A stretch of 41,518 nucleotides of DNA from a virus. Taxonomy: Duplodnaviria; Heunggongvirae; Uroviricota; Caudoviricetes. The notes beneath the pieces were generated by a model. It was not told the DNA's origin. It was given only the letters and a program-made list of their open reading frames with translations, and did not search any database. Made by a program: the position numbers and the translations under genes. Of the stretch, positions 7,466-36,046 are shown in pieces. The stretch lies in the IMG/VR virus record IMGVR_UViG_2802429248_000002. One strand, 5' to 3'. How positions within the stretch are numbered: position 1 is the stretch's first letter; each line of letters begins with the position of its first letter.

Positions 7466-7558
7466 ATTTACATAGCACTCCTCTTGTGCCATAGTAATCG
7501 GGCACTGGCAAAATCCAGTGCCGGGATTGGCGTCCCGGATTACTACAGAGGCACATAT

Positions 7559-7578
7559 GCCGCATAAGCGGTTTTTTT
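7559..7578 (+). terminator. Short intrinsic terminator/attenuator-like hairpin in the leader of the Bro-N gene
   Basis: Stem GCCGC (7559-7563), loop ATAA, GCGG, then seven T (7572-7578); preceded by an 8-bp stem hairpin GGCACTGG-CAAAAT-CCAGTGCC (7501-7522). Confidence 0.4.
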
Positions 7579-7731
7579 ATGTGTAAAGCGCACCTATTCT
7601 ATGGTGGGCTGTGTGGGGGCACCGAAAGGTGCGCCGGGTCCTTTGTAGCCGGTTACGCCAACCCTGCACAGTTCACCACCAACCGATTGGCGTCGGTAGT
7701 GGTGATTAACCTAACTACAAAGGTGATCACT

Positions 7732-21992: not shown

Positions 21993-22694
21993 TTATTTGC
22001 CATAGAGCACTTCGGCCGCACTACGCTGGCCTTCATTACCACCGGTGACCATGCCATCTTCAGACATCGCCTTTCCGATTTTCACGAACGTTTTGACCAG
22101 ATCAGGGTGATTACCCAGCCCGGTGGTGTTCAGATATTCTTTGAGTTCAGGTGTCCCGAACTGGTCAAGCGCACGCTGTGCGGCGCTAAGGTTAGAAATC
22201 AACTTGTCGCCACCGATTTCTTTGTCAGCTTTTACATCCGCAGCCCACTGCTCGGTTGTTTTCTGCCAGGCTTCTGCCTGGCGCTGCTGAACACCTGCCA
22301 GAATCTTCGGATAAGCATCAACCAGCTTTTGCGCTTGCTCGTTGGTCAGGTTTAGTTCTCGCGCCACCGGCTCGAATTCCTTCAACGCTTCTGTATCCAG
22401 CTCTACGCCTTCGGCAGCCTGAAACTCGTACTTCTCAGGCGCACCCTCAGGTTTATCGCCGTCCTTTTTTTCATCCTGCTTATCGTTTTCAGGCTTTTTG
22501 TCATCAGCAGGTTTATCGCCATCAGCAACAGGTTGTGGCTTATCACCTTCCTGTTGTGATGGATCACCAACTGGAGCAGGGTTATCACCTGCAGGCGCTG
22601 ACGGTTCTGACGCAGCCGGAGCTGCTCCACCATCGACTGGTTGCTCATTGCAAAGACGGCGATACAGCAAACGCTCAAATAAATTCATGATCAC
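21993..22694 (-). CDS. Scaffolding protein
   Basis: 233 aa; acidic Pro/Asp/Lys-rich low-complexity N-terminal half, helical C-terminal half; between portal and capsid genes. Confidence 0.6.
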   Translation of the reverse strand: MIMNLFERLLYRRLCNEQPVDGGAAPAASEPSAPAGDNPAPVGDPSQQEGDKPQPVADGDKPADDKKPENDKQDEKKDGDKPEGAPEKYEFQAAEGVELDTEALKEFEPVARELNLTNEQAQKLVDAYPKILAGVQQRQAEAWQKTTEQWAADVKADKEIGGDKLISNLSAAQRALDQFGTPELKEYLNTTGLGNHPDLVKTFVKIGKAMSEDGMVTGGNEGQRSAAEVLYGK

Positions 22695-22987
22695 TCCTGT
22701 TCACTGGCCTCTTTGGCCATCTTCAAATACTGTTCAGGGCAATGCGCCATAACGCGCTGAAACAGTTCCAGCGCCAGATTGCGTTGCCCCTCATTAAATG
22801 CCATTGCCATAGCGTCCATCGGTGAGATAGCGGAAAACACACGGCCTTTCTCCAGCACCGACCAGACAACGCGACGCCCCTGTTCACTGCTCATGACAAA
22901 GCGAATGTCATCAATTTCACGCTGCGCCATGTCACGTTGCTTACGGGCGTTTTCTTCTTTCAGTTGATCGTCTTCGTAATCTGTCAT
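22691..22987 (-). CDS. Hypothetical protein between portal and scaffold
   Basis: 98 aa, charged and helical; overlaps the portal stop. Confidence 0.45.
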   Translation of the reverse strand: MTDYEDDQLKEENARKQRDMAQREIDDIRFVMSSEQGRRVVWSVLEKGRVFSAISPMDAMAMAFNEGQRNLALELFQRVMAHCPEQYLKMAKEASEQE

Positions 22988-24663
22988 TGTGATTGCCCAC
23001 CCTGACCACTAACTGCATTCGCCATAGCTGACAAAACACTCGGATCCGAAGTTTTAGCTTCGCTTAGCGTCTTGGCACCCTGTGCCGCCGCCATCCCCAT
23101 CGCCATCATTTGTTGCTGCTGTTGCTGCTGTGCCCGTTGCTGGCGAGCCTGCTCAACCTGTTCCTGCGGAACAATGACGGTTGGAGACACTCCGGACATA
23201 TCAGCGAATGCATCGATCGCCTGATCAACGTTGAGTTTGTCGAGAGCTTCTGGTTTCGCTTGCGCAAGTTGACCAATGAAGTTAACCGTGGACGCCAGAC
23301 TGGACAGGCCGATAGACTTCTGCGCCTGAGCCATGACGGAAATGTATTCGACCTTCAGGGGCATACCTTCCATCGCGTCAGGCGGTGGCGGCAGCATGTT
23401 TTTACGCACCATCATCGAGAAAGCGCGGTCAATGAGAGGGTTAAGACATTCGTCGTTCAGACGCTCCAGAACCGGCCCCAACATCAGAAGCTTTTCTTCT
23501 TTCATTTCGATCACTGCTTCAACAGGCATCGAGCGGGTATTGATGTTCTGCAACATCATGAACAGATCGACAAAGTAGGCGCTGTTAATGATTTGACGGG
23601 TGTCCTGAATGTCTGCTACCAAATCTGCTGTACTGGGGTTAACCAGATAAGCAGGCCTGAAGCCATCCTGACCAGTAATCTGATCGATATACGTGATGTC
23701 GCCAGGAAGAAGGGAGGCGCGCTGATTCTTGAGGGAAGTCGGAGCAACCATCGGCGGATTGGTGGCTTTATCAATCAACTGCGACTTGCGCTTCTGGAGA
23801 AGCTGCAATGCCTTAACAGGTCCAAGCGCCAGCATACCAGGGCATGATGATCCATAAACATCTTCGCCGTTAACTTCCCAGCGCGGAGCCATAATTGGAA
23901 ACTCATCGAATCCGGACTCACGCAACAACTTGTCGTTATCGCCACCAACCTCGTAATAAACCGATTTGAATGGCTTGTTCTTGCTATCCAGCTTCGATGT
24001 ATCGCGGTCAATGTTCGGGTAAACCGAATGCATCACTTCAATCCACTTCTCGTAGGTGCCGCTTTCCCACATGCTTTTTACGGATTCGCTGACGTTATTT
24101 AGCCCGAACTCCTGAACAAGCTGACGAACAGTCATAGAGAACTTGCGAAAACAGGTGTCCACACTGCCACGAGGTGAGTTAGCCAGGTAGTAACTGCCTA
24201 TCGGGAATGGCATTGTGCGAATGATGTCCTCGTCATCCTCCAGCACCGCCATTGCACCAGTGCTGTATGTGCCGAGGCTTCCGTATAACTGCGGAAGAGA
24301 CTGGTAGAGATTCGACTTATTGAACATATCGTTCATGCGGTTCTGCACCGCCTCAAGCCACAACTTAACAGGGCCATAATCCATCATTTCAGGATCTGGC
24401 GTAGCCAGGCGAAACCACGGACGCGCGGGGCTTGTGATGCCTGACATCATGCCGCTGGCGAGAGTGCGCGCCGCCATAGTCCCGGTCGAATCAATAATGC
24501 GTGTATTGCGTCGATCGTTACGGTTGACCTCAGAAGTCAGAAAGCGGGAACCACGCGGGTTGATGTAATCACTCAACTCGCGCCAGTGCGGCTCGAACGA
24601 CTGACGCTCGCTTTCAAGTTGTGCGAACTGTTTGTTCAATCGCTCTTTAGTTGTTTCCGCCAT
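22984..24663 (-). CDS. Portal protein
   Basis: 559 aa; first large gene downstream of terminase in the operon; C-terminal poly-Gln/Ala tail. Confidence 0.75.
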   Translation of the reverse strand: MAETTKERLNKQFAQLESERQSFEPHWRELSDYINPRGSRFLTSEVNRNDRRNTRIIDSTGTMAARTLASGMMSGITSPARPWFRLATPDPEMMDYGPVKLWLEAVQNRMNDMFNKSNLYQSLPQLYGSLGTYSTGAMAVLEDDEDIIRTMPFPIGSYYLANSPRGSVDTCFRKFSMTVRQLVQEFGLNNVSESVKSMWESGTYEKWIEVMHSVYPNIDRDTSKLDSKNKPFKSVYYEVGGDNDKLLRESGFDEFPIMAPRWEVNGEDVYGSSCPGMLALGPVKALQLLQKRKSQLIDKATNPPMVAPTSLKNQRASLLPGDITYIDQITGQDGFRPAYLVNPSTADLVADIQDTRQIINSAYFVDLFMMLQNINTRSMPVEAVIEMKEEKLLMLGPVLERLNDECLNPLIDRAFSMMVRKNMLPPPPDAMEGMPLKVEYISVMAQAQKSIGLSSLASTVNFIGQLAQAKPEALDKLNVDQAIDAFADMSGVSPTVIVPQEQVEQARQQRAQQQQQQQMMAMGMAAAQGAKTLSEAKTSDPSVLSAMANAVSGQGGQSQ

Positions 24664-24677
24664 TTCAATGACTCCGG

Positions 24678-24884
24678 TTACTGACCAAGCAGCGTTTTAC
24701 CGCTGGTATTAGCGGTTGATGTGTCGCCCTGAGAACCGGTGAGCAGCGTAGAACTACGACCAGCAGCAGCGCGACGGCGACGAGTTTCTTCGTCGCGGGC
24801 ATCAACAACGGCGGCATCCTGCTCCTGTGGTGCTGCCTGAACTTCTGGTGTTGCAGGCACTGATGGTGAGCTACCCATGCACAT
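24678..24884 (-). CDS. Small disordered protein upstream of portal (hypothetical)
   Basis: 68 aa; GGAG 9 nt upstream of ATG; Ala/Thr/Ser-rich. The competing 24665-24904 frame starts at TTG and is disfavoured. Confidence 0.35.
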   Translation of the reverse strand: MCMGSSPSVPATPEVQAAPQEQDAAVVDARDEETRRRRAAAGRSSTLLTGSQGDTSTANTSGKTLLGQ

Positions 24885-24952
24885 ATCAATGACTCCGTAC
24901 GCAATTAAACTATTACCAATTTAACCACATATGATTTATTTATCGTAGATAG

Positions 24953-24989
24953 TTGACATTTAACGCACAAATTATTACCTTTCAGGTAA
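24953..24989 (+). promoter_or_regulatory. Sigma70-like promoter (TTGACA-17-TACCTT) overlapped by operator palindrome TTACCTTTCAGGTAA
   Basis: -35 TTGACA 24953-24958, 17-bp spacer, -10 TACCTT 24976-24981; palindrome 24975-24989 covers the -10 and start site. Points rightward into the leader and tRNA-Arg. Confidence 0.5.
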
Positions 24990-25311
24990 CCAAAGAGTTC
25001 ATTCCGGTTACTAACCTGACTGGCTTGTCGTTAAATTGAACAGGTGGAGTGAGCTTTTATTTTGAGCAGTACGGCGTATGGCACATGCGCCGGTAGCGGT
25101 CTGGATACGTTTAAGGGGCTCCCTCCCTTGCTCGGGCAAACGAACCAGGTAGCCGGAATGTGCAAGTCGAGCGGTTTTATTCCGCGCACGGGGATTCACC
25201 ATCCCGGCGATTCGGTGTGACGCCTCGGAAGAGACGAGGGTACAACGATGAGAGCATTTATGGAGCCGCGACAAAGTGTGGCGCCTTAACAGGCTAAGTG
25301 CTCTCAGCGTT

Positions 25312-25388
25312 GTGGCATTAGCTCAGTTGGACAGAGCAACCGCCTTCTAAGCGGTTGGTCGCAGGTTCGAATCCTGCATGCCACGCCA
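25312..25388 (+). tRNA. tRNA-Arg (anticodon UCU), phage-encoded
   Basis: Cloverleaf readable by eye: acceptor GTGGCAT/ATGCCAC, D-arm GCTC-AGTTGGACA-GAGC, anticodon stem ACCGC/GCGGT with loop CTTCTAA, variable TGGTC, T-arm GCAGG-TTCGAAT-CCTGC, discriminator G, encoded CCA. Confidence 0.9.
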
Positions 25389-25431
25389 GAATCACGCCTA
25401 AGGACCGTGATGCCAGAAGTTCCAGGGGCTT

Positions 25432-25473
25432 GGCGGTGATGGTTTCCCTTGAAGGGCTATCACCGCCCTTTTT
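25432..25473 (+). terminator. Intrinsic terminator downstream of tRNA-Arg
   Basis: Stem GGCGGTGAT (25432-25440) / ATCACCGCC (25459-25467) followed by CTTTTT. Confidence 0.6.
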
Positions 25474-25550
25474 ACAGCAGGACGCCATTGCGATGACTTC
25501 ATGCTGTAAACCAGTACAGCCACGGAAGGCATAACTCATTGCTTCCAGTT

Positions 25551-25576
25551 CGCCCGGTTCGCCGGGCATTTTTTTG
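25551..25576 (+). terminator. Second intrinsic terminator (TTCG tetraloop hairpin plus T7 run)
   Basis: GCCCGG-TTCG-CCGGGC hairpin (25552-25567) followed by seven T. Confidence 0.6.
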
Positions 25577-25591
25577 CTTGATGACCGCAAA

Positions 25592-25606
25592 TTACCTTAA
25601 AGGTAT
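25592..25606. promoter_or_regulatory. Operator palindrome TTACCTTAAAGGTAT overlapping the RBS/-10 region of the cargo gene
   Basis: Ends 4 nt before ATG 25611; a consensus TATAAT hexamer (25604-25609) overlaps its right arm. Confidence 0.45.
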
Positions 25607-25610
25607 AATC

Positions 25611-26429
25611 ATGAAAAACTTCAAGGTAATTAGCATGTTTGAATCGTTTAAAGAGCTGTTTTTATCTACTGCCAATACTGCCGTGAATCGAGCCAAAAAC
25701 CCTGTGCTTGGTGCTTTTGTTATGTCCTGGTGCGCCTTCAACTGGAAATCAATTCTTTATCTATTTTTTAGCAAATCAAACATAATAGATAAAATTTCAT
25801 ATATCTCAGATAACAGCACATGGAAAACTGTTATGTTTTATCCATGCTTATCTGTAATTGCTATCTGCTGCCTATTACCATGGGTAAACAATATCATTAA
25901 CGTATGGCAAGCAAAGCCTCTTGATAATAATGACTCAATCGAAAATCACCTGAAGGCAAGAAAAATCCAGCGTGAAACCAGACTGCAGAGGTTATTGGCT
26001 AAAAAAGATGTTACATACGACAAAGTTAAGACTGGCGCGGAAAAAGACATCCAAGAGATGAAAGAAGAGATTATTCGATCAAAGAATAGTATGGGGGAAT
26101 TGACTGCTGAGTTGAAAGCTAAAGATGACGAATTGAGATCCGCCAGTGCTCAGTTAGCAGCTCTAAATCATTCATTAAAAGAGATATCGGAAACTCTTGG
26201 AAGAATGAATGAGGCATATAAGACCCTCCAAAATGATTTCGACGAATACAAACTCAAATACCCTGAAAAATCTCAAATAAAAAGCCTTGCACTTGGCAAC
26301 GGCCAAACAATTAGCAACTTTTTGGAGCAACACAACTTATCCGGATTAAAATCTGGTAAGCCAAACGTTTTTAATAACTTTGGTGTTCTATCTGGATTAT
26401 CAGGTTTCGAGGATAAAAATAAAGACTAA
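25611..26429 (+). CDS. Membrane protein with C-terminal coiled-coil, function unknown (candidate abortive-infection/exclusion factor)
   Basis: Start taken at MKNFKV (ATG 25611). 272 aa; two hydrophobic helices near the N-terminus, then a long charged heptad-like region (..ELTAELKAKDDELRSASAQLAALNHSLKEISETLGRMNEAYKTLQNDFDEYK..). AT-rich by eye; opposite strand to the flanking terminase and portal genes. Confidence 0.55.
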   Translation: MKNFKVISMFESFKELFLSTANTAVNRAKNPVLGAFVMSWCAFNWKSILYLFFSKSNIIDKISYISDNSTWKTVMFYPCLSVIAICCLLPWVNNIINVWQAKPLDNNDSIENHLKARKIQRETRLQRLLAKKDVTYDKVKTGAEKDIQEMKEEIIRSKNSMGELTAELKAKDDELRSASAQLAALNHSLKEISETLGRMNEAYKTLQNDFDEYKLKYPEKSQIKSLALGNGQTISNFLEQHNLSGLKSGKPNVFNNFGVLSGLSGFEDKNKD

Positions 26430-27901
26430 GCATATGGATCGTACTCGGTAAGCGCCTTGCCTTGCTGGTTCTGCTGCCCGGGAAGTCGCAGGCGCTTTGA
26501 CACCGGGAAAGCAAACGTCAGCAGTAGCGCATCGCCTTTACCAGGCGAACGCCCAAGCCGCTCCTTGATATCTTCCTTCGGTTCGATAACGATTTTACCG
26601 TCCACTCGAACTTTGTACTCTGCCGCCGACAGATCGTCCGCTGTTTCCTGGTCATCCAGCATCCCGCCCAGCCTCAGCCATGTCTTGCATGAGTTGAACA
26701 TCTCCCCACGCTTGTTGAGCATCTGCGGGTCAGTAGACGCGCCACCGAACGGAACAAGTTGCCATGTACGACCCCAGCCGTCACCGATTGACTTCAAACC
26801 GGTTCCGTAACCGAAGTCGATGAACACCGCGTCAGCCTGATACTGGTCTTCAAAGTCAGCGATACGCTTCGCCATAATCAGATCGTCGGTAGTCTTGTTG
26901 CCAGTCCACAGCACCTTACTGTGTAGCCCCTGCCGCAGGTATATCACCGCGTCATCAACGCCTGAATATGCCGGGTCAACACCGATTATCACCGGAGCAT
27001 GCGCCACCTGCGCAGCGGTTACCACCCGTTTCATTGCCTCATCAGTAAGACCGGTAGGGATAAACTGCAATTCAGATGCATCAGGGAATATGCCGCGCAC
27101 ACGGATTTTAACGAAGTCGCTGTCTTCCCCGTAGTCATCAACCCATTTCTGCAACTGCTGTTTGTTAGTGCCTTCCACCGTTCGGCTGTCAATCTGCGCA
27201 GTTTTCCAGCGGTGTTTATATTTGCGGAAACATTCGCGGAAACGTCCGGTGTTACGTGTAGGGTTTCCGAACGCCACCCAGATAATCTCAGTGTCTTCGT
27301 CCGTTAGCGCACCCTCGGCAACTTCCCACACCAGATCCGCAATGTTCGACGCTTCATCAAATACCACGATGATGCGTTTACGCTCGTTGTGTAGTCCGGC
27401 GAATGCCTCAGTGTTGTGCTCAGACCAAGGGATTGCGTCAGCTCGCCACCGCTTGTCGTGCCCAGGATCATTGCTGTACATCGCGGTAGCGGTACAGGTA
27501 AACCAGTCTTTCGTGATAGCAAGGTTCGACCACTTGATAATTTCCGGCCAGGTCTTAGTTCGTAGCTGGTTGTCGGTGTTGGCGGTCACCACGACCTTAC
27601 AATCCTCGCAAGTGGACATGCCCCAGTTGATCAGCATTGAGATGAATGCGGATTTACCAATACCGTGACCAGAAGCGCGTGCCAGCATAAGCGGCTGATA
27701 GCGCGTCTCTGGATTCTGCAGGTGATCACGTATCTCTCGGAACGCATCAGCCTGCCACTGACGTGGGCCGGTGGCATGTGCCAGTTCAGTCCCCTCTTCC
27801 CCCCACGGGAACGCATAGAGGGCATAGCCAAGCGGATCGTGAGTGAACCCTGCAATATCCTCGATCAACTGCTCTTCAGGAGATAACGCTGTATCTGTCA
27901 C
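26426..27901 (-). CDS. Terminase large subunit
   Basis: 491 aa; N-terminal P-loop-like ATPase region (GHGIGKS), acidic nuclease-like C-terminal half; overlaps the small-subunit stop; precedes portal. Confidence 0.8.
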   Translation of the reverse strand: MTDTALSPEEQLIEDIAGFTHDPLGYALYAFPWGEEGTELAHATGPRQWQADAFREIRDHLQNPETRYQPLMLARASGHGIGKSAFISMLINWGMSTCEDCKVVVTANTDNQLRTKTWPEIIKWSNLAITKDWFTCTATAMYSNDPGHDKRWRADAIPWSEHNTEAFAGLHNERKRIIVVFDEASNIADLVWEVAEGALTDEDTEIIWVAFGNPTRNTGRFRECFRKYKHRWKTAQIDSRTVEGTNKQQLQKWVDDYGEDSDFVKIRVRGIFPDASELQFIPTGLTDEAMKRVVTAAQVAHAPVIIGVDPAYSGVDDAVIYLRQGLHSKVLWTGNKTTDDLIMAKRIADFEDQYQADAVFIDFGYGTGLKSIGDGWGRTWQLVPFGGASTDPQMLNKRGEMFNSCKTWLRLGGMLDDQETADDLSAAEYKVRVDGKIVIEPKEDIKERLGRSPGKGDALLLTFAFPVSKRLRLPGQQNQQGKALTEYDPYA

Positions 27902-28530
27902 TGATTACCATCCTGACGTTCTTTGAGTCGCTTCCTGGCTGCTGCTATGCGATCAGCAATTGTCACATTCACATTAACATCCAGACGTTCTTTGAACGCG
28001 TTAACGTCGACGTGCTTACCGATGAGCTCGAGGTTTTTCACCTTGTCGGGCCATTTCACCTTCTTCAGGATATGCTCGACATCCTCAACAGAGAGATCCG
28101 CCTCGCCATTCTCTTTTTGCAGGGAAGCCTGGGTTGTCTTGATGGTAGCGATATCCATAGCACTGAGAGAGGTACGCCAGACCTTCGGCCATTCAGCGAT
28201 CGGCTTCATCCCGCCGTCATCGTTCAGTATATCCAGCACGTCCATCTGGTCGATCTCCACCAGGCGCATGAGAACGTAATCAGCACTGACGCGCATTCGT
28301 TTGTTGCGCTCCTCCATCAACTCGGCAATCCGTTTTTTAATGCGTTCATCGCGCATCATGACACTGGCTTTAACTGCCGCTGTATTTGGGGAGAATCCTG
28401 CGTTAATCGCTGCCTGAGTCTGGTTTTCAGGCGTTTTGATGTATGACTGGCAATAAGCCTCCTGCATTGCTGTTAGTGGCTTAAATTGCGTTGATTTGCG
28501 TTTATAGGTTTTAGGTTCAGCAGGCATCAT
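27898..28530 (-). CDS. Terminase small subunit
   Basis: Start taken at MMPAEP (28530), because the longer track ORF would run through an upstream terminator hairpin. Basic N-terminal region, coupled to the large subunit. Confidence 0.55.
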   Translation of the reverse strand: MMPAEPKTYKRKSTQFKPLTAMQEAYCQSYIKTPENQTQAAINAGFSPNTAAVKASVMMRDERIKKRIAELMEERNKRMRVSADYVLMRLVEIDQMDVLDILNDDGGMKPIAEWPKVWRTSLSAMDIATIKTTQASLQKENGEADLSVEDVEHILKKVKWPDKVKNLELIGKHVDVNAFKERLDVNVNVTIADRIAAARKRLKERQDGNQ

Positions 28531-28572
28531 AACCACCGTGGTAATAGTTACCGTTGTGGTAATAGTACCATG

Positions 28573-28598
28573 CAAAATAAAGCCGCCATAGTTGGCGG
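28573..28598 (-). terminator. Intrinsic terminator-like hairpin upstream of the terminase small-subunit gene
   Basis: GCCGCC-ATAGTT-GGCGGC (28581-28598) with AAAATAAA on the plus strand, so TTTATTTT follows the hairpin on the minus strand. Confidence 0.45.
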
Positions 28599-28648
28599 CA
28601 GTATTCAAAACCCGTCAAATTCATCATGCATAATCTACTCGTGACATG

Positions 28649-28885
28649 TCACACTATTAATTTCGTTTCATGCCAGCCTTTAGTCACCCAGCATTGCGAG
28701 TCACCATTACACGGGCATGAATTAACTGGAACTCTCTCGCCGCACTTACCGCAACGTTTTCTGCTGATCGATTTTATACGCCCGCGCACACGTGCATCAT
28801 CCTGGCGGATCAGCAGCGCGATGTACTCGGCCATTTCATAGGGATCGCGACCAGGGCGCCGGGCGGCGCAGTTCCGCGCCAGCAT
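28649..28885 (-). CDS. Small Cys-rich (zinc-ribbon-like) protein upstream of the terminase operon, possible late-gene regulator
   Basis: Start uncertain: ATG 28885 has AGGAG 8 nt upstream, while the track ORF extends to a GTG at 28996. C-terminus RKRCGKCGERVPVNSCPCNGDSQCW. Confidence 0.35.
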   Translation of the reverse strand: MLARNCAARRPGRDPYEMAEYIALLIRQDDARVRGRIKSISRKRCGKCGERVPVNSCPCNGDSQCWVTKGWHETKLIV

Positions 28886-29101
28886 TTCCTGCTCCTGCTT
28901 ATCCAGCACCAGTTCAATTTTGCGCTCACCGGCGGCGGACTGCCGAGCGCGCTGCGCGGCTTTGCGTTCTGCGGGGGATTTAGCCACGAATCGCACTCCA
29001 CGCCAGATTGATTAATGACTCCCAGGTAATATAAACCCGGATACCAGCAGCCAGGCCGAAACCAATCACCATGGCATAAAGCAGAGCGTTGCACTTGTTC
29101 A

Positions 29102-29941
29102 TCACTTCACCTCCTGCGGCGGTTCTGGTAGCGGCATCCAGTGAGTTACTTTCGATGCCGGTTCTTCCCCATCGTCAGTAACTGCCCACCATTTGTTTCT
29201 CGACCAATCGTAATACCCTTCGAAGGTATCGCACTCAGTCCAGCCGTAAGACTTACCCCAACACCAAACATACTGTTTATCGTTCGGCATTCGCTCACTA
29301 CAGCTTATCCAACCATCCGGAGTTACCGGATAGTTGCGCATTGCGACCTTTAATGCCTCATAGAAGCAACCTTTCAGATTGTTGAACTGACGCCCATTTA
29401 GCGGGCCGTGTTCAGTCAGCATGTTGTGTAATTTCCATGCCGCGTCGTTTACTTCGTTGGATGACAGGGGAGGCAACTTGTAAGTTTGGCTTACAGGTTC
29501 GGCACCATGAAGCATGGCGTCGCTCCGCTCTATGCCATCCAGCGCGATTCGCAGTGCCTGAATTGTGGTAATGCTATCGTTTGGGGCTATTCCATATCGC
29601 TCGAATACAGCGATATGACCGCGCATAATCTCAGGCGTAAGCTCTTTGTAAGCATAAGCAAGCGACCCTGATGCATCATCCGGCACAACCGACGCAGGCG
29701 CGGCAGCATAAACAGGAATAACGTCCGCTTGCTCTTTATTGCTTTCATCCGTTAAAGCCCAGAATAATTTCCCGGCCGGATGTTTGAAAATATAAGCAAC
29801 TGGTTCTGCTTCCAGCGATGCCAGAGCAATTCGTGCCAGTTCTTCCGCTTCTTCTGCTGGCAGTACAACGTTGCTACCAGGTCCGTATGTTTCGCGCCAC
29901 TGTTTGATTGTCAGCAGTCGCTCTTTGGTAATAGTGGTCAT
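29102..29941 (-). CDS. Hypothetical phage protein with C-terminal DUF551-like W-rich domain
   Basis: 279 aa; C-terminus WxxCSERMPND...WCWG...W...HWMPLPEPP, typical of a recurrent prophage domain (memory). Confidence 0.5.
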   Translation of the reverse strand: MTTITKERLLTIKQWRETYGPGSNVVLPAEEAEELARIALASLEAEPVAYIFKHPAGKLFWALTDESNKEQADVIPVYAAAPASVVPDDASGSLAYAYKELTPEIMRGHIAVFERYGIAPNDSITTIQALRIALDGIERSDAMLHGAEPVSQTYKLPPLSSNEVNDAAWKLHNMLTEHGPLNGRQFNNLKGCFYEALKVAMRNYPVTPDGWISCSERMPNDKQYVWCWGKSYGWTECDTFEGYYDWSRNKWWAVTDDGEEPASKVTHWMPLPEPPQEVK

Positions 29942-29944
29942 GTG

Positions 29945-30094
29945 TTAGTCCTCTGTAGCAGGTGATACGCCGTAGTTGCATTCTTCATAGAATATGTCTC
30001 TGCCTATTTCTTCGGCATCCTCTGGCGTGTCTGCTTCAAACTCAACAACCTTGCAATCATTAAATCCTTCGATAGTCACGATGTACTTAGCCAT
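29945..30094 (-). CDS. Small acidic protein (hypothetical)
   Basis: Start taken at MAKYIV (ATG 30094) with AAGGAGAG upstream and ATGA overlap with the preceding gene stop; 49 aa. Confidence 0.4.
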   Translation of the reverse strand: MAKYIVTIEGFNDCKVVEFEADTPEDAEEIGRDIFYEECNYGVSPATED

Positions 30095-30095
30095 A

Positions 30096-30605
30096 TCACT
30101 CTCCTTTGATGCGAATGCCAGCTGCGCTTGCTGATTCTTCATATGCGCGTTTAGCAGCGTTAAGGATTGCTGCCAGTGGCGTATAGCCGCCATCCATTCG
30201 GATTGTGTTGTGGATGCCAGCCATTGTGTCGCGCAATTTGCTGTGGCTAGCAGACAGTTCTGCTATGCACTTCTCTGCGGCATCGGCTCGATCTTTTTCA
30301 CGCTGGAACATTTTGTGAGTGCGGTCTATAGCTTCGATTCGTGCCGCTGATGTCTTCTGCACGGCTTCAAGCTCAACACGCAGCTTCCCAACCGTAAGAG
30401 CAATATCCTCGTTCTCCTGGTCGCGGCGTTTGATGTATTGCTGGTTTCTTTCCCGTTCTTCCAGAAGCGCCAGCACAATATGTGGCGTTATCAAGGACTT
30501 AAATTCGGCAACAGCTTGCTCGCCTCGCTTGTAATTCTTAATCCCACCTAAATCTTTCGCGTTCTGTGCCGCCTCACGCAGTGCCTGATAGTCAATTTTG
30601 CTCAC
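30096..30605 (-). CDS. Ead/Ea22-like coiled-coil protein
   Basis: 169 aa, charged coiled-coil, early-left region of a lambdoid phage; family assignment from memory. Confidence 0.45.
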   Translation of the reverse strand: MSKIDYQALREAAQNAKDLGGIKNYKRGEQAVAEFKSLITPHIVLALLEERERNQQYIKRRDQENEDIALTVGKLRVELEAVQKTSAARIEAIDRTHKMFQREKDRADAAEKCIAELSASHSKLRDTMAGIHNTIRMDGGYTPLAAILNAAKRAYEESASAAGIRIKGE

Positions 30606-30858
30606 TGGTTGCCTCCGCTTCCCACGTTTTCAGACTTTCACCACAGAACGGGCAAAATGAAACTCGAATTGGTGATTTAGAAAATTCACCAGACCGCAGC
30701 ATGATCAGGTCTTGTGAATGAATTAATTCATGGTTATAGATTTTGTATATCAGCAGACCTTTTCGCGTCGTGTATTCAGCAGCCCGCTCCAGTGATTGTG
30801 CCAACGCCGCGCACGGTTCTATCTTGTTGCCATTAATTTTGCATTTTGACTCACTCAC
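30592..30858 (-). CDS. Small protein with C-terminal CxxC zinc-ribbon
   Basis: 88 aa; ..CPFCGESL.. near the C-terminus plus upstream Cys; translationally coupled. Confidence 0.4.
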   Translation of the reverse strand: MSESKCKINGNKIEPCAALAQSLERAAEYTTRKGLLIYKIYNHELIHSQDLIMLRSGEFSKSPIRVSFCPFCGESLKTWEAEATSEQN

Positions 30859-30904
30859 TGGTTGCCTCCTGTTAAATTTTCTGTGATATCAGCGTTTACG
30901 ACGA

Positions 30905-31912
30905 TCATTCACATACACCGGCATAAACACTGCTGCACACCGTCTTATCGTTCGTGCTCGCCAGTAGGTCAAATTGAGCGCCACCTCGGGTTGTCATTGC
31001 CCAGTCGCGATAGGTTTCGATTCCGTAGCTGTCTACGGTAACTACATCTATGCGACGTTCTGCCCGGCGTGGGTCATGAGTTGACGGAAAAAACGTTGAG
31101 TTGCCGTGGCGAGAGCAGGCTGCAACTAATCGTTCCCACTCTGCCACTCTGGCGATTTCCTCTGGCCAGCGCTGAAAAATTTCCGCCAGTTCAGATTTTC
31201 TGGCATGAATGCATGGCATACACCCAACGCGGCCGCATCCTTGTTGGTAGAGTGGGTTGGGTTTAATCCCGTGACGCCTGGCAATAGCGAAAACATCCTC
31301 ATGTAGCCAGTTGAGAATCGGACGATAGACATGCAATCCGGGGGTATTGTCCGCATCCTCCTCCCACACTTGCAGGCGTGCCCTCGATGGCGATTCCTGA
31401 GCACGCACACCCTGCCAGGAGATAACTTCGTCATATTCATCAAGCGCAGGTTGCACCACCTGAGTGCGCACTGGTTCGTGTTTCAGTTCGAATGTACAGA
31501 ACCGCGCTTTAGTACTCGGGAAACGACCTTTCCACATGCACAGGTCAAGAAATGGATTTCCGGTTGGGTGTAGGATTTCCAGCGCACGAGCAACACGTTC
31601 CGCTGCTTCATCAGGCGTCATTCCGCACTCTGCAACAAGAGATACTGGCCATTTTTCAGCAATGAATTTGCGCTTACCTTCTATCTGGCGAGTGAAGTCG
31701 GCTTTTACGCGACGAATTGGGCCCAGCTTTTGTTCCAGGTAGTCAAGGTACTCCATCGTTTGTGGGTGTTCGTGTCCCGTATCAGCAAACACTCGCTCAT
31801 GCTGTATATCGTTTTCTATGGCATACAAACATTGCGCCAGTGAGTCTTTCCCGCCAGACATGGAAACCAAATTAAAAGTGTTTTCTGCTCGGCAGCGCTG
31901 AACGATGCTCAC
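30905..31912 (-). CDS. PAPS reductase-like / PP-loop ATP pyrophosphatase family protein
   Basis: 335 aa; N-terminal PP-loop motif VSMSGGKDS; Cys-rich C-terminal half (CGRVGCMPC). Confidence 0.7.
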   Translation of the reverse strand: MSIVQRCRAENTFNLVSMSGGKDSLAQCLYAIENDIQHERVFADTGHEHPQTMEYLDYLEQKLGPIRRVKADFTRQIEGKRKFIAEKWPVSLVAECGMTPDEAAERVARALEILHPTGNPFLDLCMWKGRFPSTKARFCTFELKHEPVRTQVVQPALDEYDEVISWQGVRAQESPSRARLQVWEEDADNTPGLHVYRPILNWLHEDVFAIARRHGIKPNPLYQQGCGRVGCMPCIHARKSELAEIFQRWPEEIARVAEWERLVAACSRHGNSTFFPSTHDPRRAERRIDVVTVDSYGIETYRDWAMTTRGGAQFDLLASTNDKTVCSSVYAGVCE

Positions 31913-32529
31913 TGGCCGCCTCCTTTGCGAAGATCTGCGGCCAACTCGTCACATATGTGCGTCAAAGAGCAAAGTTTGATTGATGGATGTTCGCGCATCA
32001 TCTCCACCCCCTGCGCCCGCACTTCAGCCAGGCATTTGCGAAACTCGGAAACGTACTGTTCGACGCTCATTCCCCAGCTAAGTGGACATTCATTGAATGT
32101 TTCGCCTTCGTGCTCTTCATCAGGTAGCTCTTTGGTAAAGAACTCACGCTCAATGGCGTGGAGTGTGTCAGCAAAACGACGTAAGTTACTCAAACCTACC
32201 GTAATGGAGAATTCAGGAGCATCACATCCGACGCCCATCTGCTGATAAACGGCGGTTTTGAAGGCCTTAAGCCCCGCATTCTCCGCTGCCAGCGCCGAAA
32301 ACTTCTCGTGTGCCAACTTAACAGCTGCATCAGCCTGCTTAATTGACTCAATCGCTTTCTGCTGGTCTTCGGCCAGCGCATTAGCACGCACCAGTTGCAC
32401 TTCCAGTTGCGTTGCCAAATCGCTGATCAGCTTTGCCACACTGCGCATATCAACGGCACCACATTCTGCTTTCAGTTCCGAAGCCATCTCATGCCCGGCG
32501 GCAACTAACCCTTTGATATTACTTTCCAT
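31909..32529 (-). CDS. Hypothetical early protein
   Basis: 206 aa helical ORF, overlaps the downstream gene start by 4 nt. Confidence 0.45.
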   Translation of the reverse strand: MESNIKGLVAAGHEMASELKAECGAVDMRSVAKLISDLATQLEVQLVRANALAEDQQKAIESIKQADAAVKLAHEKFSALAAENAGLKAFKTAVYQQMGVGCDAPEFSITVGLSNLRRFADTLHAIEREFFTKELPDEEHEGETFNECPLSWGMSVEQYVSEFRKCLAEVRAQGVEMMREHPSIKLCSLTHICDELAADLRKGGGQ

Positions 32530-32590
32530 CTTTACCCTCGCTTATCCACATAACTTATTGATTACATTGATAACTAAAAAGATCGTCGAT

Positions 32591-32938
32591 TCAGAACTCT
32601 TCGATGTTCCAGCCACCACCTGCTTTCTTTGGCTTAACCGTTACCCCGATGATTCGGAACGGATACTGATCTGCGGCGACTTTGGTTTTCACTCTGGCGT
32701 CATCGGTCCAGAATCCCCCTTTCACTTCGTGCAGTTCCATCTCGCCGGTGGCGAGCATCACAGCAAAATCTGGCGTATAGAACGTGTTGTCAGCTAACCG
32801 CAGCTTGATACCCTCAAATCGATACCAGACGATTTCTCCTGCACGTTTACGCAGCTCAAGGTGCTGGCAATACGCAGATTCTGTTTTGTTCATCTGGCCT
32901 GTTTTGAGTCGACCAAGAGCCTGCATCTGTTTTCTCAT
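32591..32938 (-). CDS. VRR-NUC-like (PD-(D/E)xK) nuclease domain protein
   Basis: 115 aa; motif ..YTPDFAVMLATGEMELHEVKGG.. fits the D...E.K catalytic arrangement of VRR-NUC domains (memory). Operator palindrome 4 nt upstream of the ATG. Confidence 0.55.
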   Translation of the reverse strand: MRKQMQALGRLKTGQMNKTESAYCQHLELRKRAGEIVWYRFEGIKLRLADNTFYTPDFAVMLATGEMELHEVKGGFWTDDARVKTKVAADQYPFRIIGVTVKPKKAGGGWNIEEF

Positions 32939-32941
32939 GAT

Positions 32942-33018
32942 TTACCCCTTAGGTAATTAAAAACCACATAAGACACGAAATCAATAGATTTTAGAATATT
33001 TTATTACCTCTAAGGTAA
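32942..33018. promoter_or_regulatory. Pair of operator palindromes (TTACCCCTTAGGTAA 32942-32956; TTACCTCTAAGGTAA 33004-33018) flanking a putative minus-strand promoter
   Basis: Minus-strand TTGATT-17 bp-TTTAAT lies between the two palindromes; the proximal palindrome overlaps the RBS of the VRR-NUC gene. Confidence 0.5.
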
Positions 33019-33055
33019 TTATCGAGACGTAAAAAAATGCGCTATCGCGCTGGTA

Positions 33056-33856
33056 TTACTTGATAAATCCTGACGCCTTTCCCCGCCTGTATTCCTCCAT
33101 CAGCCACTGCGCCGGTGTTATTCCCCCAAGGGTGGCGGCGTTAGGCATGCACCCGAAACTTCGCCCTGGTGGATGGTAAACGTCTCTCCCTGTGTCCGGA
33201 GGCGTACTCATGGGTTCTGGCTTTGCCTGTATGCTGATCACCGGATCGGGTATCTGCTGTCCGGAAGCCACCTTTTTCGCCCAATCATCGAGCAGCCTGC
33301 GCGCGTGTTTCTCAACCTCAATCTCGCTAAGCTGGCGCTGATACATTGCACGGCGGGTATCACATACGACCCAGTACATAACCTGATGTCGCCACGGGAA
33401 TCTTTCGGGACCACCAGGATATAAACTTTTTTCCTTGCTGTACCGGTGAAACTCCGCCATCACATCGTCAATGGTGACGCCAAGAACCATCTTGCTGTCT
33501 TTACACCACTTGATGAATTGCCCTGGCGACGGCCAGAACGGAGAATCACTGGCGCGGGCGTGGCGCATACCAGCAGAAACCTGTTCACGGGTTCGGATCC
33601 CCCCTTCGGCAAACGCAGCAATCCACTGCTGTTTTGCAGCAACTTCCTGCTCTGGCGTCTTCAGGTTGGTTACCACTGCCGCCGGAAACAGTTGTTTCAG
33701 CTGTTTGAAAAGGGCATCAACAAGCCTCTCTGCTGACATGTTCACTACGTTGTCATTGTTGGTGTACTGATGCTCATAACCTGACATGCGAGAAAGGGCT
33801 TCTCCGTCACGGTTTTGTATTGCGGTAAAAACGTTGTTCACAAGAAATCCTCCCAC
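33056..33856 (-). CDS. Replication protein P-like (DnaB helicase loader)
   Basis: 266 aa; segment WIAAFAEGGIRTREQVSAGMRHARASDSPFWPSPGQFIKWCKD aligns with the lambda P core (..WVLAFRENGITTMEQVNAGMRVARRQNRPFLPSPGQFVAWCRE..) from memory. Confidence 0.7.
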   Translation of the reverse strand: MGGFLVNNVFTAIQNRDGEALSRMSGYEHQYTNNDNVVNMSAERLVDALFKQLKQLFPAAVVTNLKTPEQEVAAKQQWIAAFAEGGIRTREQVSAGMRHARASDSPFWPSPGQFIKWCKDSKMVLGVTIDDVMAEFHRYSKEKSLYPGGPERFPWRHQVMYWVVCDTRRAMYQRQLSEIEVEKHARRLLDDWAKKVASGQQIPDPVISIQAKPEPMSTPPDTGRDVYHPPGRSFGCMPNAATLGGITPAQWLMEEYRRGKASGFIK

Positions 33857-34653
33857 GCTTCAGGGCTGTTCCAGTGCGGAACGTTGTTATCAGGTAATGT
33901 TGATTGCTTCTGTCTGCTAATCTGCAGCCGCCTTGCCAGCTTCTGCTCCCACTGTGCCTGATGGTATGCCTTACCCTCAGCCATCCAGTAAATTCTGAAC
34001 TCTGCAAGTTCCTGTGCCGTTGGCAGACTGTCCAGGTAGATCCCCTGCAATGAGCTTTTCCGAAGAAAGTCATCTGATGGCTGCCATTGTTCATGCATGA
34101 CAAATTTGCCTAATTGCCCTGGCCCACCAGGAGGAACAAAGTTATTCATCACGGCGTTGTTTGCGCCGGGGTCATGATGCACAGAATCCCCGTTTTTTGT
34201 CCTGCTCTCCCTCTCTTGGTTAAATGACTGGTTATATGACTGGTTCTGGATCCCGTTTTTGGGATCATTCAACATCCCGTTTTTGGAATCATTCAACATA
34301 CCGTTTTTGGGTATATTCCCGTTTTCGGTAACATTACCGTTTTCGGGTTCATTGCCCCCCTCTCGGTTGCCTTTAATGTTCCCGTTTTTGGTTATATTAA
34401 GAGAGAAAACCCGCACTCTTTTTGTCGCTCCCTTTCTCTCCCCGGTATCTGAAATAAGCCCCATTTTCATGAGCGATATAAGTCCGGCCTGCACGGTTTT
34501 TTTATTCAGGCAAGTGTCTTTAACGAGGCGTTCTATGCTGGGGTAGCAGAGGTTATATTCATCGGCTCTGTCAGCCATCGAGAGCAGTATGAGCTTTAAT
34601 GACGAGCTACCTGGATCTGTCTCCCAGGCCCAATCTGTTGCATGTCTGCTCAT
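33838..34653 (-). CDS. Replication initiator with N-terminal HTH and DnaT-like C-terminal domain (O-equivalent)
   Basis: 271 aa; C-terminus LGKFVMHEQWQPSDDFL...ELAEFRIYWMAEGKAYHQAQWEQKLARRLQISRQ resembles E. coli DnaT (memory). Central Asn/Gly-rich repeats are encoded by iteron-like DNA repeats. Confidence 0.65.
   Translation of the reverse strand: MSRHATDWAWETDPGSSSLKLILLSMADRADEYNLCYPSIERLVKDTCLNKKTVQAGLISLMKMGLISDTGERKGATKRVRVFSLNITKNGNIKGNREGGNEPENGNVTENGNIPKNGMLNDSKNGMLNDPKNGIQNQSYNQSFNQERESRTKNGDSVHHDPGANNAVMNNFVPPGGPGQLGKFVMHEQWQPSDDFLRKSSLQGIYLDSLPTAQELAEFRIYWMAEGKAYHQAQWEQKLARRLQISRQKQSTLPDNNVPHWNSPEAWEDFL
34251..34392. repeat. Iteron-like array: six copies of (C/A)CCGTTTT(T/C)GG inside the replication initiator gene (putative ori)
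   Basis: Copies begin near 34251, 34276, 34300, 34317, 34336 and 34381, spacing 17-45 bp; also a direct repeat ATGACTGGTT x2 at about 34223-34246. Confidence 0.5.
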
Positions 34654-34668
34654 GATTAATCTCCGCTA

Positions 34669-34869
34669 TCAGCTTGAATGTTGTGGGGAGGAATTAATCA
34701 TGATCTGCTTAATCTCTGCCCTGATACGACGGTTTGATTCCATGGTGCACTCAACACAGTGTCCGTTGTAAACCCAGCGTTCACTGTCATGTCCGTGCTT
34801 ACATATTTTTCCGGTGTAGTAGCGTTTAAGTCCGCGCTTTGCGGCATCAATACGTGTAATGATTTCCAT
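34669..34869 (-). CDS. Small zinc-finger-like protein (hypothetical early regulator)
   Basis: Start taken at MEIITR (ATG 34869); 66 aa; CKHGH...CVEC motif. Confidence 0.35.
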   Translation of the reverse strand: MEIITRIDAAKRGLKRYYTGKICKHGHDSERWVYNGHCVECTMESNRRIRAEIKQIMINSSPQHSS

Positions 34870-34949
34870 GGTAAGCCATGTTATTAGTATTGGGATTACG
34901 GTTATTTTGTGCTGACACAAAAAAAAGATCAACCACATTTGGTTTTTTA

Positions 34950-34964
34950 TTACCTTTGAGGTAC
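34950..34964. promoter_or_regulatory. Operator palindrome TTACCTTTGAGGTAC upstream of the early-left genes
   Basis: Located between the Cro-like gene stop (35020) and the small zinc-finger gene start (34869). Confidence 0.4.
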
Positions 34965-35019
34965 GAATAGATATGAAAAGACCGCCGGATGGCGGTCTAC
35001 AGAGGGTTGTGGCTGGATA

Positions 35020-35250
35020 TCATGAGTAGAAGAAGTATGCCAGTTCTGCTTTTGAGCGCAGCCATTGTCTTGATTTACAGGCTTTAAAAAGCCCATCCAT
35101 CAATACCTTACCTGGCATTTTGCGCTTACCTGTTAAGTGAGTCTGGATATAGTGACTCGTCGTTCCGGCTTCCTGTGCGAAGGCTTCACGCTCATCCGGA
35201 GTAAGTGCAAGCCAGTGCTTTTTGAAATCGAAATGTCCGTTATCGCTCAT
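35020..35250 (-). CDS. Cro-like HTH DNA-binding protein (first gene of the leftward early operon)
   Basis: 76 aa; HTH-like segment FAQEAGTTSHYIQTHLTGKR; divergent from the repressor-like gene across an operator-rich 150-bp region. Confidence 0.45.
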   Translation of the reverse strand: MSDNGHFDFKKHWLALTPDEREAFAQEAGTTSHYIQTHLTGKRKMPGKVLMDGLFKACKSRQWLRSKAELAYFFYS

Positions 35251-35286
35251 AGCTATTGCCTGATATTTATTTCAGATAATAAATAT

Positions 35287-35349
35287 TCACCTATAAGGTA
35301 ACAAAAATCAAGGATAGTTACCCATGAGGTGCATTTACCTGTTGGGTAA
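35287..35349. promoter_or_regulatory. Immunity-region operator cluster: three sites (TCACCTATAAGGTAA 35287-35301; TTACCCATGAGGTGC 35318-35332; TTACCTGTTGGGTAA 35335-35349)
   Basis: Clustered palindromes in the divergent Cro-like/repressor intergenic region, analogous in layout to lambdoid tripartite operators. Confidence 0.55.
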
Positions 35350-35404
35350 TATTGCTTTAAATTGAATCATCTTCTGATTCAGATATGAGGCGATTTTCCA
35401 GAAA

Positions 35405-35989
35405 ATGAAAAGTATCCAGGACGTCCGCAGGCAAAATCTCAACGACTTGATCGACCGTGAATTCAATGGTGTTCAGACGCGGATGGCTGAAAAACTTGGA
35501 ACTCAGGCAAATCTGGTAAACCGCTGGGCTCTTGGCAAGAAGGTTATCGGCGACCAGGTTGCGCGAAAAATTGAAGCTGCCGCCAATAAACCCCGTAACT
35601 GGCTTGATATCGATCGCTCGCTTTCTCAGGAAGGTTTTCAGCCTGTCGGCCCGAGTGATATAGGTCAGCTGGCTGCTCACAACCTGGAACGCTGGATGAG
35701 CGAAAGCCGCGACCTTTCAACGCAGGGAAAACTACACCGCGCATCCGGCGTCGCCCAGGTGACAATCAGCCGCCTGTTAAACAATGAGGTCAGCGTTTCC
35801 ATTTCCACCCTGGAGAATGTTGCATCCGCATTCGGGCGTCATGGCTATGAATTACTGATTCACCCGCACGACCCTGCGACTATCAACTATGACCGCTCGC
35901 GCTACGCATTGTTACCCGAAACCGAGAAAGCAAAGATCGAAAGTTACATTGAATTTGTCATCAACCAGAACGAAAAAAACAAACAATAA
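35405..35989 (+). CDS. XRE-family repressor-like protein with two HTH motifs and no S24 autocleavage domain (putative immunity repressor)
   Basis: 194 aa; HTH 1 GVQTRMAEKLGTQANLVNRW, HTH 2 ASGVAQVTISRLLNNEVSVS; no GDSM/Ser-Lys peptidase signature; flanked by operator clusters on both sides; terminator immediately downstream. Confidence 0.55.
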   Translation: MKSIQDVRRQNLNDLIDREFNGVQTRMAEKLGTQANLVNRWALGKKVIGDQVARKIEAAANKPRNWLDIDRSLSQEGFQPVGPSDIGQLAAHNLERWMSESRDLSTQGKLHRASGVAQVTISRLLNNEVSVSISTLENVASAFGRHGYELLIHPHDPATINYDRSRYALLPETEKAKIESYIEFVINQNEKNKQ

Positions 35990-36010
35990 AATCATATTTT
36001 TCAGTAAGTA

Positions 36011-36034
36011 AGCCGCCTTCTGGCGGCTTTTTTA
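36011..36034 (+). terminator. Intrinsic terminator after the repressor-like gene
   Basis: AGCCGCC-TTCT-GGCGGCT hairpin followed by TTTTTTATT. Confidence 0.65.
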
Positions 36035-36046
36035 TTGCCTACTCGA

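Follow-up and report, generated by a model that had tools for sequence, protein, structure and literature searches.

A tRNA gene carried inside a Uetakevirus prophage

The locus studied here raises the question of why a temperate podophage should carry, in the interior of its genome, a tRNA gene of its own. We analyzed a stretch of 41,518 nucleotides (IMG/VR record IMGVR_UViG_2802429248_000002; hereafter "the window"), which DNA searches assign to a prophage of the epsilon15/phiV10 type, i.e., a podophage of the genus Uetakevirus; positions 1-1074 are taken up by the host genes yfgH and yfgI, and the prophage leaves the right edge inside its integrase gene (40262-41518). The sole tRNA of the window, at 25312-25388 (+), is read by ARAGORN as tRNA-Arg with anticodon tct and reaches 73.3 bits with the Rfam tRNA model RF00005 (E = 2.6e-14), far above the gathering score of 29, so that the complete UCU-anticodon tRNA of the initial annotation is confirmed both by gene prediction and by a covariance-model scan. 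On the strand opposite to the late genes, it occupies the interval that separates the gene for the large terminase subunit (26426-27901, -) from the small ORF in front of the portal gene (22984-24663, -). As a gene it is genuine but ordinary: the region is 98-99% identical in phiV10, the O157 typing phages 9 and 10, phiv142-3, TL-2011b and vB_EcoP_ZX5, is matched in 1,096 of 5,426 complete E. coli genomes, and already bears the tRNA annotation in GenBank and RefSeq relatives, with one tRNA also reported in the ZX5 paper (PMC9782041).

The view that the tRNA travels inside the prophage and is not its integration target stood up to closer inspection. The prophage sits between yfgI and guaA, its integrase end abuts guaA in a near-identical prophage, and the att core of phiV10 and ZX5 is the 3' end of guaA (PMC9782041). 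At the left junction (ca. 1227-1239), 24 kb away from the tRNA, the window retains ATTGAGTGGGAAT (1223-1239), which keeps 13 of the 17 bases of the published att core before the sequence diverges; a search of the exact ZX5 core with at most one mismatch found nothing, and the 13/17 remnant appears with up to three mismatches allowed. Given this att core at guaA and the internal position of the tRNA, a role of the latter as attachment target was rejected.

Identity and conservation of the tRNA

The gene specifies a full cloverleaf with G73 and an encoded CCA end, and its anticodon UCU (positions 34-36) is held in the 7-nt loop CUUCUAA with U33 and A37. Arginyl-tRNA synthetase recognizes its substrates by A20, C35, U or G at position 36, and a purine at position 73; A20, C35, U36 and G73 are all present in the phage tRNA, with the D-loop AGUUGGACA putting the A at position 20. 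Comparison with the argU-type tRNA of the host, which had been suggested as a check in the initial annotation, revealed 64 of 77 positions identical to E. coli K-12 argU, including the D-stem, the T-arm and the whole anticodon loop. Of the 13 differences, one is a base of the D-loop, and the others lie in the variable loop and in the acceptor and anticodon stems, the changes in the stems being compensatory.

Relatives show the same pattern. The 35 tRNA-Arg(UCU) genes in the loci that we fetched represent 13 distinct sequences, among them a diverged phage lineage (GAUGGUG...CACCAUC) in which the acceptor, anticodon and T stems have all changed in a compensatory manner and the loops have stayed the same, and every one of the 13 keeps the anticodon loop CUUCUAA of host argU. 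Because the stems change compensatorily while the anticodon loop stays constant, the gene is evidently under purifying selection as a working tRNA, and this compensatory evolution across phage lineages lends indirect support to its expression, processing and aminoacylation.

Codon demand of the prophage

To quantify the demand for such a tRNA, we compared 43 prophage ORFs (11,896 codons) with 24 host core genes (7,702 codons), the latter made up of K-12 genes around purK-folD, of guaA, guaB, xseA and der from a related strain, and of yfgH and yfgI from the window. The prophage uses AGA 7.65 times per 1000 codons vs 0.91 in the host core set (odds ratio 8.5, Fisher p = 7e-13) and AGG 4.03 vs 0.65 times (Fisher p = 2e-6), which bears out the initial expectation that both codons are elevated in prophage genes. 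CGA is enriched as well, with 7.06 vs 1.95 per 1000 codons, and has no matching phage tRNA.

This demand is spread unevenly over the genome. The tailspike uses 21.8 AGA per 1000 codons (20 AGA and 10 AGG; GC3 30.7%), followed by the lysis genes with 17.4 (7 AGA), the variable ORF downstream of the tRNA with 14.7 (4 AGA), the accessory/immI block with 12.1, the early/replication genes with 8.6 (18 AGA) and the ejection/tail proteins with 7.4 (27 AGA), down to 2.4 for the head genes and 0 for the terminase. No AGA occurs in the major capsid, portal or either terminase subunit gene, and the tRNA is therefore not needed for bulk late translation; it serves AT-rich, exchangeable modules and not the bulk synthesis of virions. 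The tailspike gene (3377-6133, -) has the lowest GC content of the prophage (39.7%), holds a third of all its AGA and AGG codons, and encodes a C-terminal Peptidase_S74 chaperone domain. The module has been swapped recently: prophage L001, while 99% identical to the window in the tRNA region, encodes another tailspike, of the GH28 type.

The initial annotation had tied the tRNA to the "cargo" gene next to it, a variable ORF of 272 aa (25611-26429, +) that starts 222 nt downstream of the tRNA with two terminator-like hairpins in between. It matches phrog_4780, a family of unknown function, and combines an N-terminal hydrophobic membrane segment with a long coiled coil; Pfam gave no match above threshold, and PHROGs only families of unknown function. 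A role as a defense gene was rejected since PADLOC matched DndD, LmuB and JetC only on the coiled-coil segment, at E-values of 1e-5 to 1e-2, and these matches were judged to be compositional. The ORF is indeed as A/T-rich as had been described (GC 36.4%, GC3 37.4%), and its 8 arginine codons include 4 AGA and 1 AGG. The idea that the tRNA compensates for AT-rich cargo is thus right about the composition of this gene but not about its weight, because it holds only 4 of the 91 AGA codons of the prophage and the main users are the tailspike, ejection/tail, early and lysis genes; the cargo ORF is a minor client. Its locus is a variable slot: only 37 of the 1,096 E. coli genomes with a match have both ORF and tRNA, and other ORFs fill the place in phiV10, typing phage 9, Tyrion and a Klebsiella phage.

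A putative repressor-controlled non-coding unit

Upstream of the tRNA, we read from the sequence a putative promoter (24953-24989, +) composed of TTGACA (24953-24958), a 17-nt spacer and TACCTT (24976-24981), and this promoter is found in at least 13 related loci. The perfect palindrome TTACCtttcAGGTAA (24975-24989), which may serve as an operator for the phage repressor encoded at 35405-35989, overlaps its -10 element. Downstream of the tRNA follow two hairpins that resemble intrinsic terminators, one with a 14-bp stem and CTTTTT (25432-25477, +) and one with a GC-rich 6-bp stem and ATTTTTTT (25552-25577, +), and then the candidate promoter of the cargo ORF (ATGACC-17-TATAAT; 25581-25609, +), the -10 element of which is again overlapped by an operator-like sequence, TTACCTTAAAGGTAT (25592-25606).

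The underlying motif TTACCNNNNNGGTAA, i.e., TTACC-N5-GGTAA, occurs 15 times in the window with at most one mismatch, an 18-fold enrichment over the 0.82 sites expected that none of 100 shuffles reached. All sites (at 3009, 6238, 7358, 7451, 24975, 25592, 28530, 28548, 32942, 33004, 34950, 35287, 35335, 36047 and 36108) lie in intergenic control regions. Those at 35287 and 35335 are located between cI and cro, others flank the immunity region, and two are found upstream of the isrK/C4 antirepressor module. In the record of phage epsilon15, repressor and IHF sites are annotated at the position equivalent to the promoter of the tRNA unit, while the ZX5 paper maps no operators (PMC9782041). The motif is probably the operator of the phage repressor, with a regulon that would include both the tRNA unit and the cargo ORF. 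Since operator-like palindromes lie on both promoters as well as in the cI/cro region, early repressor-controlled expression is suggested, and we infer that the tRNA unit and the cargo ORF would be silent in the lysogen and switched on early once repression is lifted. Behind such operator-overlapped promoters, the gene labeled "cargo" in the initial annotation and the tRNA thus look like early lytic functions and not like cargo that the lysogen expresses.

With regard to the antirepressor module itself, Rfam models for isrK (76.8 bits) and C4 antisense RNA (79.5 bits) match at 7502-7683 (+), immediately ahead of a Bro-N antirepressor ORF (7579-8418, +) and extending into its start. Together, these elements form a predicted antisense-controlled antirepressor module similar to the immI locus of P1 and P7, here in a Uetakevirus prophage.

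A structured leader RNA upstream of the tRNA

No credible ORF is present in the 400 nt from the promoter region to the tRNA, and their sequence is nonetheless conserved even in relatives from Klebsiella, Enterobacter and Salmonella. Alignments of this leader (A1-A3) revealed long invariant blocks, namely CGGCGUAUGGCACAUGCGCCG, AGCGGUC, GGUAGCCGGAAUGUGCAAG and UUCACCAUCGUGGCGAUACGGUGUGAC, with variable hairpins between them. From these alignments, counts of base pairs and a covariance model of 159 positions (R1), we delineated a core of four helices and a candidate pseudoknot (25071-25242, +), followed by a long 3' hairpin (CAACGAUGAGAGCA ... UGCUCUCAGCGUUG; 25243-25312, +) with a hypervariable insert of ca. 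45 nt. The core measures ca. 146-178 nt and the whole element ca. 160-240 nt.

The five-helix structure, with 25 pairs and including the candidate pseudoknot CACC:GGUG, is strongly supported by covariation: 94.8% of the alignment cells form standard pairs vs 27-52% in slid controls, 13 pairs have changed on both sides vs at most 7, and the covariation score is 0.31 vs 0.03-0.08; GCACAU:AUGUGC is a competing candidate pairing. A protein-coding nature of the leader was rejected because the indels in its two variable hairpins are not multiples of three, the hairpin lengths falling evenly into each residue class modulo 3, and because the helices covary. Model R1 has its sole match in the window at 25071-25242 (145.4 bits), and a search of the whole window with filters off returned no second, putR-like copy in the prophage.

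The last G of the 3' arm of the terminal hairpin is G1 of the tRNA, and the fold of 25236-25392 has an MFE z-score of -3.97. In a comparison of 41 non-redundant leader copies, the arms of this hairpin covary between lineages by inspection (GAGAGCA/UGCUCUC, AAGAGCA/UGCUCUU and GAGAGCGCAC/GUGCGCUC). Among otherwise similar copies (L012-L131), the arms are conserved (GAGAGCAUU / AGUGCUCUC) and the insert of ca. 45 nt is wholly different.

This structured leader is new here: it was absent from the initial annotation, a scan of positions 24850-25650 against Rfam 15 with E-values up to 10 returned only the tRNA and sub-threshold noise, and none of the listed E. coli sites has any RefSeq annotation over it. 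The searchable literature yielded no prior description, and the Nus-dependent mEpimmI phages and the PreS sRNA of phage lambda are unrelated.

Distribution and genomic contexts of the leader

The segment 25071-25311 matches unrelated phages at ca. 80% identity, including the lambdoid phages cdtI, mEp460, mEp390 and 2H10 and converting phages for Stx2c and Stx2a, the phage-plasmids P1, P7, D6, SJ46 and others like P1, a Stenotrophomonas phage, and the Klebsiella Lastavirus SopranoGao. Of 5,426 complete E. coli genomes, 1,840 contain it, a single genome having at most four copies, and 554 copies reside on plasmids; R1 detects copies at 105-166 bits in around 20 genera of Enterobacterales; the argU/DLP12 region of K-12 gave no R1 match. 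Two metagenome bins assigned to Bacillota and Oscillospiraceae (L154 and L142) also contain the invariant 19-mer of the leader, L154 even a full-length copy (158.6 bits), but contamination of these bins is likely because all other leader hosts are Enterobacterales.

Across 120 viral contigs with this 19-mer, the leader occurs once per phage record and in several distinct arrangements. Between 25 and 27 contigs are of the Uetakevirus type with a tRNA-Arg(UCU) 164-229 nt downstream on the same strand, ca. 16 are of the P1 type with a tRNA(CAU) ca. 170 nt upstream and the dnaB-like gene ban downstream, and in at least 52 a repressor gene of the CI/LexA type precedes the leader on the same strand by 90-255 nt. 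No tRNA accompanies the leader in 79 of the 120 contigs, and the leader therefore does not require one: it is an independent, widely shared element. In P1 (L004 2411-2678), it begins 15 nt after trnI, an ileX-like tRNA(CAU) that reads AUA, and ends ca. 95 nt before ban, inside the C1-controlled ban operon. Phage cdtI shows the order of cI stop codon, cI terminator, a near-consensus promoter (TTGACA-16-CATAAT) with palindromic operator and, ca. 40 nt after the predicted start, the leader. The early-left operon of this phage thus has the element as its 5' leader. In cdtI, mEp460 and 2H10, a leader region of ca. 570 nt precedes genes of the yfdQ/yfbR type, and no N gene is annotated. Good sigma-70 promoters are found 6-125 nt upstream of the leader in most contexts, a range at odds with any fixed distance between promoter and leader, which was rejected.

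Phage epsilon15 has kept only a 70-nt remnant of the leader (L133 1795-1864; 42.5 bits) and has lost the rest together with the tRNA; it retains the promoter region, and a terminator and an ORF similar to phiV10p03 follow the remnant. Several records carry hypothetical genes that overlap the leader on either strand, e.g., mEp460 (L159 3443-3811, -) and mEp390 (L011 2011-2253, +). These ORFs are probably mis-annotations of a non-coding element, and the spurious entries are a matter for annotation.

Why the tRNA is carried

Taken together, we consider it likely that this is a functional, argU-type phage tRNA expressed early from a repressor-controlled unit for codon supplementation, and that it is linked to a leader RNA that is an independent shared element. 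The unit would consist, in this order, of a promoter with putative operator, a structured leader of ca. 240 nt, the tRNA and two terminators. Upon derepression or infection, it would be transcribed early, and RNase P would be expected to cut at G1 and thereby release both tRNA and leader. The additional tRNA-Arg may then increase the decoding of AGA and, less efficiently, of AGG, which are ca. 8-fold and ca. 6-fold over-represented in phage vs host core genes. These codons cluster in horizontally mobile, AT-rich modules, namely the genes for tailspike, lysis, ejection and early functions together with the variable ORF next to the tRNA. Such a role would be the classical codon supplementation of temperate-phage tRNAs, with the tRNA having been placed into the transcription unit of an independent and widely shared leader element. 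Several observations speak against this explanation: the -10 element TACCTT of the promoter is weak, CGA is enriched without a phage tRNA, and the commonest virion proteins have no AGA. Epsilon15, moreover, is viable without the tRNA and most of the leader, and the tRNA is therefore dispensable in at least one lineage.

A different reading, which we regard as improbable, takes the tRNA as a passenger, with RNase P cleavage at the junction of hairpin and tRNA defining the 3' end of the leader and with selection acting on the latter. The terminal helix of the leader indeed ends on G1 of the tRNA, the copy in P1 starts right after a tRNA(CAU), and tRNA-less copies still end at the equivalent place in CGUUGUGGU, which resembles the tRNA-Arg 5' end GUGGCAU. 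The C4 RNA of P1 is matured by RNase P and would be a precedent for such processing of a phage regulatory RNA. Yet the many leader copies with no adjacent tRNA indicate that the leader needs none, and the tRNA has kept all identity elements and shows the compensatory evolution typical of a decoding tRNA. AGA and AUA are the rarest codons of E. coli, and both tRNAs found next to the leader read precisely these, which points to selection on decoding.

Even less probable in our eyes is that the tRNA buffers against a nuclease of host or competitor that cuts tRNA-Arg, be it of the colicin D type or an anticodon-nuclease defense, by replacing or outnumbering the depleted host tRNA; the initial annotation had also considered a buffer against host defenses of the anticodon-nuclease type. 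Phage tRNAs in such a role are documented (PMC10264068), the apparently early, repressor-controlled promoter has the timing expected of a counter-defense, and a stem-reading enzyme might recognize the tRNA differently from argU, given its 13 differences in the acceptor and anticodon stems and the variable loop. However, the documented signature of evasion is mutation of the loop, i.e., anticodon-loop substitutions relative to the host isoacceptor (PMC10264068), and we found no such substitution vs host argU in any of the 13 distinct phage variants, which is the opposite of that signature and leaves the proposal without support. In addition, no defense specific for tRNA-Arg was found in the window, the PADLOC matches of the neighboring ORF are coiled-coil noise, and the demand for AGA decoding is real and a sufficient explanation.

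Codon supplementation therefore remains our preferred explanation, and the locus can serve as a textbook case of a temperate podophage whose argU-type tRNA suits those AGA-rich parts of the genome that were acquired horizontally. The lack of the anticodon-loop escape signature helps to calibrate the debate on codon compensation vs counter-defense as reasons for phages to carry tRNAs.

Possible roles of the leader RNA

The leader could matter more than the tRNA, being widespread, structured and unannotated. Our leading guess for its role is a cis-acting antiterminator or a protection of early untranslated transcripts, possibly by processive antitermination or by evasion of Rho across long untranslated leaders and tRNA genes. 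In line with such a role, it consistently lies close to the promoter in repressor-controlled early operons and within long untranslated stretches, it is present in N-less lambdoids, it contains a boxB-like 5-bp hairpin whose purine-rich loop GAAGAG(A/U) is conserved, the core is followed by the rrn-type boxA TGCTCTTTAACAA in some lambdoid copies (L090, L034 and L047), and the tRNA of the window is separated from the next gene by two terminators. Speaking against it, there is no homology to put and just one copy of the leader per phage, an excess of terminators behind it was not demonstrable, and epsilon15 has promoter, terminator and downstream ORF without the full leader. In its full form, the proposal is a tentative one: an undescribed class of N-independent early-operon RNAs, unrelated to put, would modify or protect early transcription and be horizontally shared by Uetakeviruses, N-less lambdoids of the SfV/cdtI type and phage-plasmids like P1.

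Alternatively, the leader may be a trans-acting early phage RNA (e.g., a decoy, a sponge or an anti-defense RNA) instead of a transcription element acting in cis; this is a serious rival reading, if a rather unlikely one. Its presence in three unrelated architectures (podoviral Uetakevirus, lambdoid and P1) and in a Lastavirus is reminiscent of mobile accessory functions, its single copy per phage is unlike the left and right copies of put or nut, and the hypervariable insert of the terminal hairpin would also fit a function in trans. Furthermore, intrinsic terminators are not clearly enriched downstream of the leader, where 23 of 35 loci have one in sense orientation, compared to 17 of 35 in antisense and 27 of 35 upstream. 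Against a function in trans, the element consistently stands near the promoter, in the long untranslated leader stretches of early operons, and no partner protein or target was found.

N-less lambdoids have been suspected of RNA-mediated antitermination (PMC12315714). If the cis-acting reading is true, an antitermination-like leader would answer how these phages express their early-left operon. For the question of how N-less lambdoids antiterminate early transcription, raised in that work (PMC12315714), the leader is a concrete candidate.

Comparison with known systems

Among known RNA elements, the leader of lambdoid carriers shares with putL of phage HK022 a position just downstream of a pL-type promoter (PMC9378689). 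The put RNAs are cis-acting antiterminators of ca. 70 nt with two stem-loops that come as a left and right pair, whereas the leader folds five helices in a core of ca. 160-175 nt and is present as one copy per phage. R1 found no match in the HK022 region 22000-40751, and homology to put was rejected on the grounds of this result and the different sizes.

With the boxB-boxA arrangement of lambda nut sites and rrn operons, the leader shares a 5-bp hairpin that, by its GAAGAG(A/U) loop, is reminiscent of boxB; the boxB loop of lambda nutL is GAAGA. Unlike nut systems, however, it comes without an N protein, the window and many other copies have no boxA or a degenerate one, and nut sites offer no counterpart to most of the conserved core. 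GOLLD and ROOL are large structured RNAs of phages and prophages, often adjacent to tRNAs, that are cataloged in Rfam and known mainly from Firmicutes and other phyla. Like these, the leader is a phage-borne, elaborately structured non-coding RNA that is frequently found next to a tRNA; they differ from it in being three to four times larger and in having Rfam families, while the leader matches none.

The tRNA, in turn, has the anticodon, anticodon loop, T-arm, D-stem, A20 and G73-CCA in common with E. coli argU (dnaY) and differs from it in the acceptor stem (GUGGCAU vs GCGCCCU), the anticodon stem (ACCGC/GCGGU vs ACGAC/GUCGU) and the variable loop; unlike argU, it is encoded by a phage and apparently controlled by the phage repressor. 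Its closest counterparts are the tRNAs that phages of the phiV10 group (typing phages 9 and 10, phiv142-3, vB_EcoP_ZX5, SPN9TCW and SPC32H) carry at the same locus with 98-99% identity, and only the variable ORF downstream differs between these phages and the window. Stx phages carry the rare-codon tRNAs ileZ-argN-argO, and P1 has trnI, trnA and trnT as phage copies of rare-codon tRNAs in early or regulated operons. The tRNAs of P1 and the Stx phages are other isoacceptors in other phage architectures, and the trnI gene of P1 adjoins the same leader RNA as the tRNA-Arg described here.
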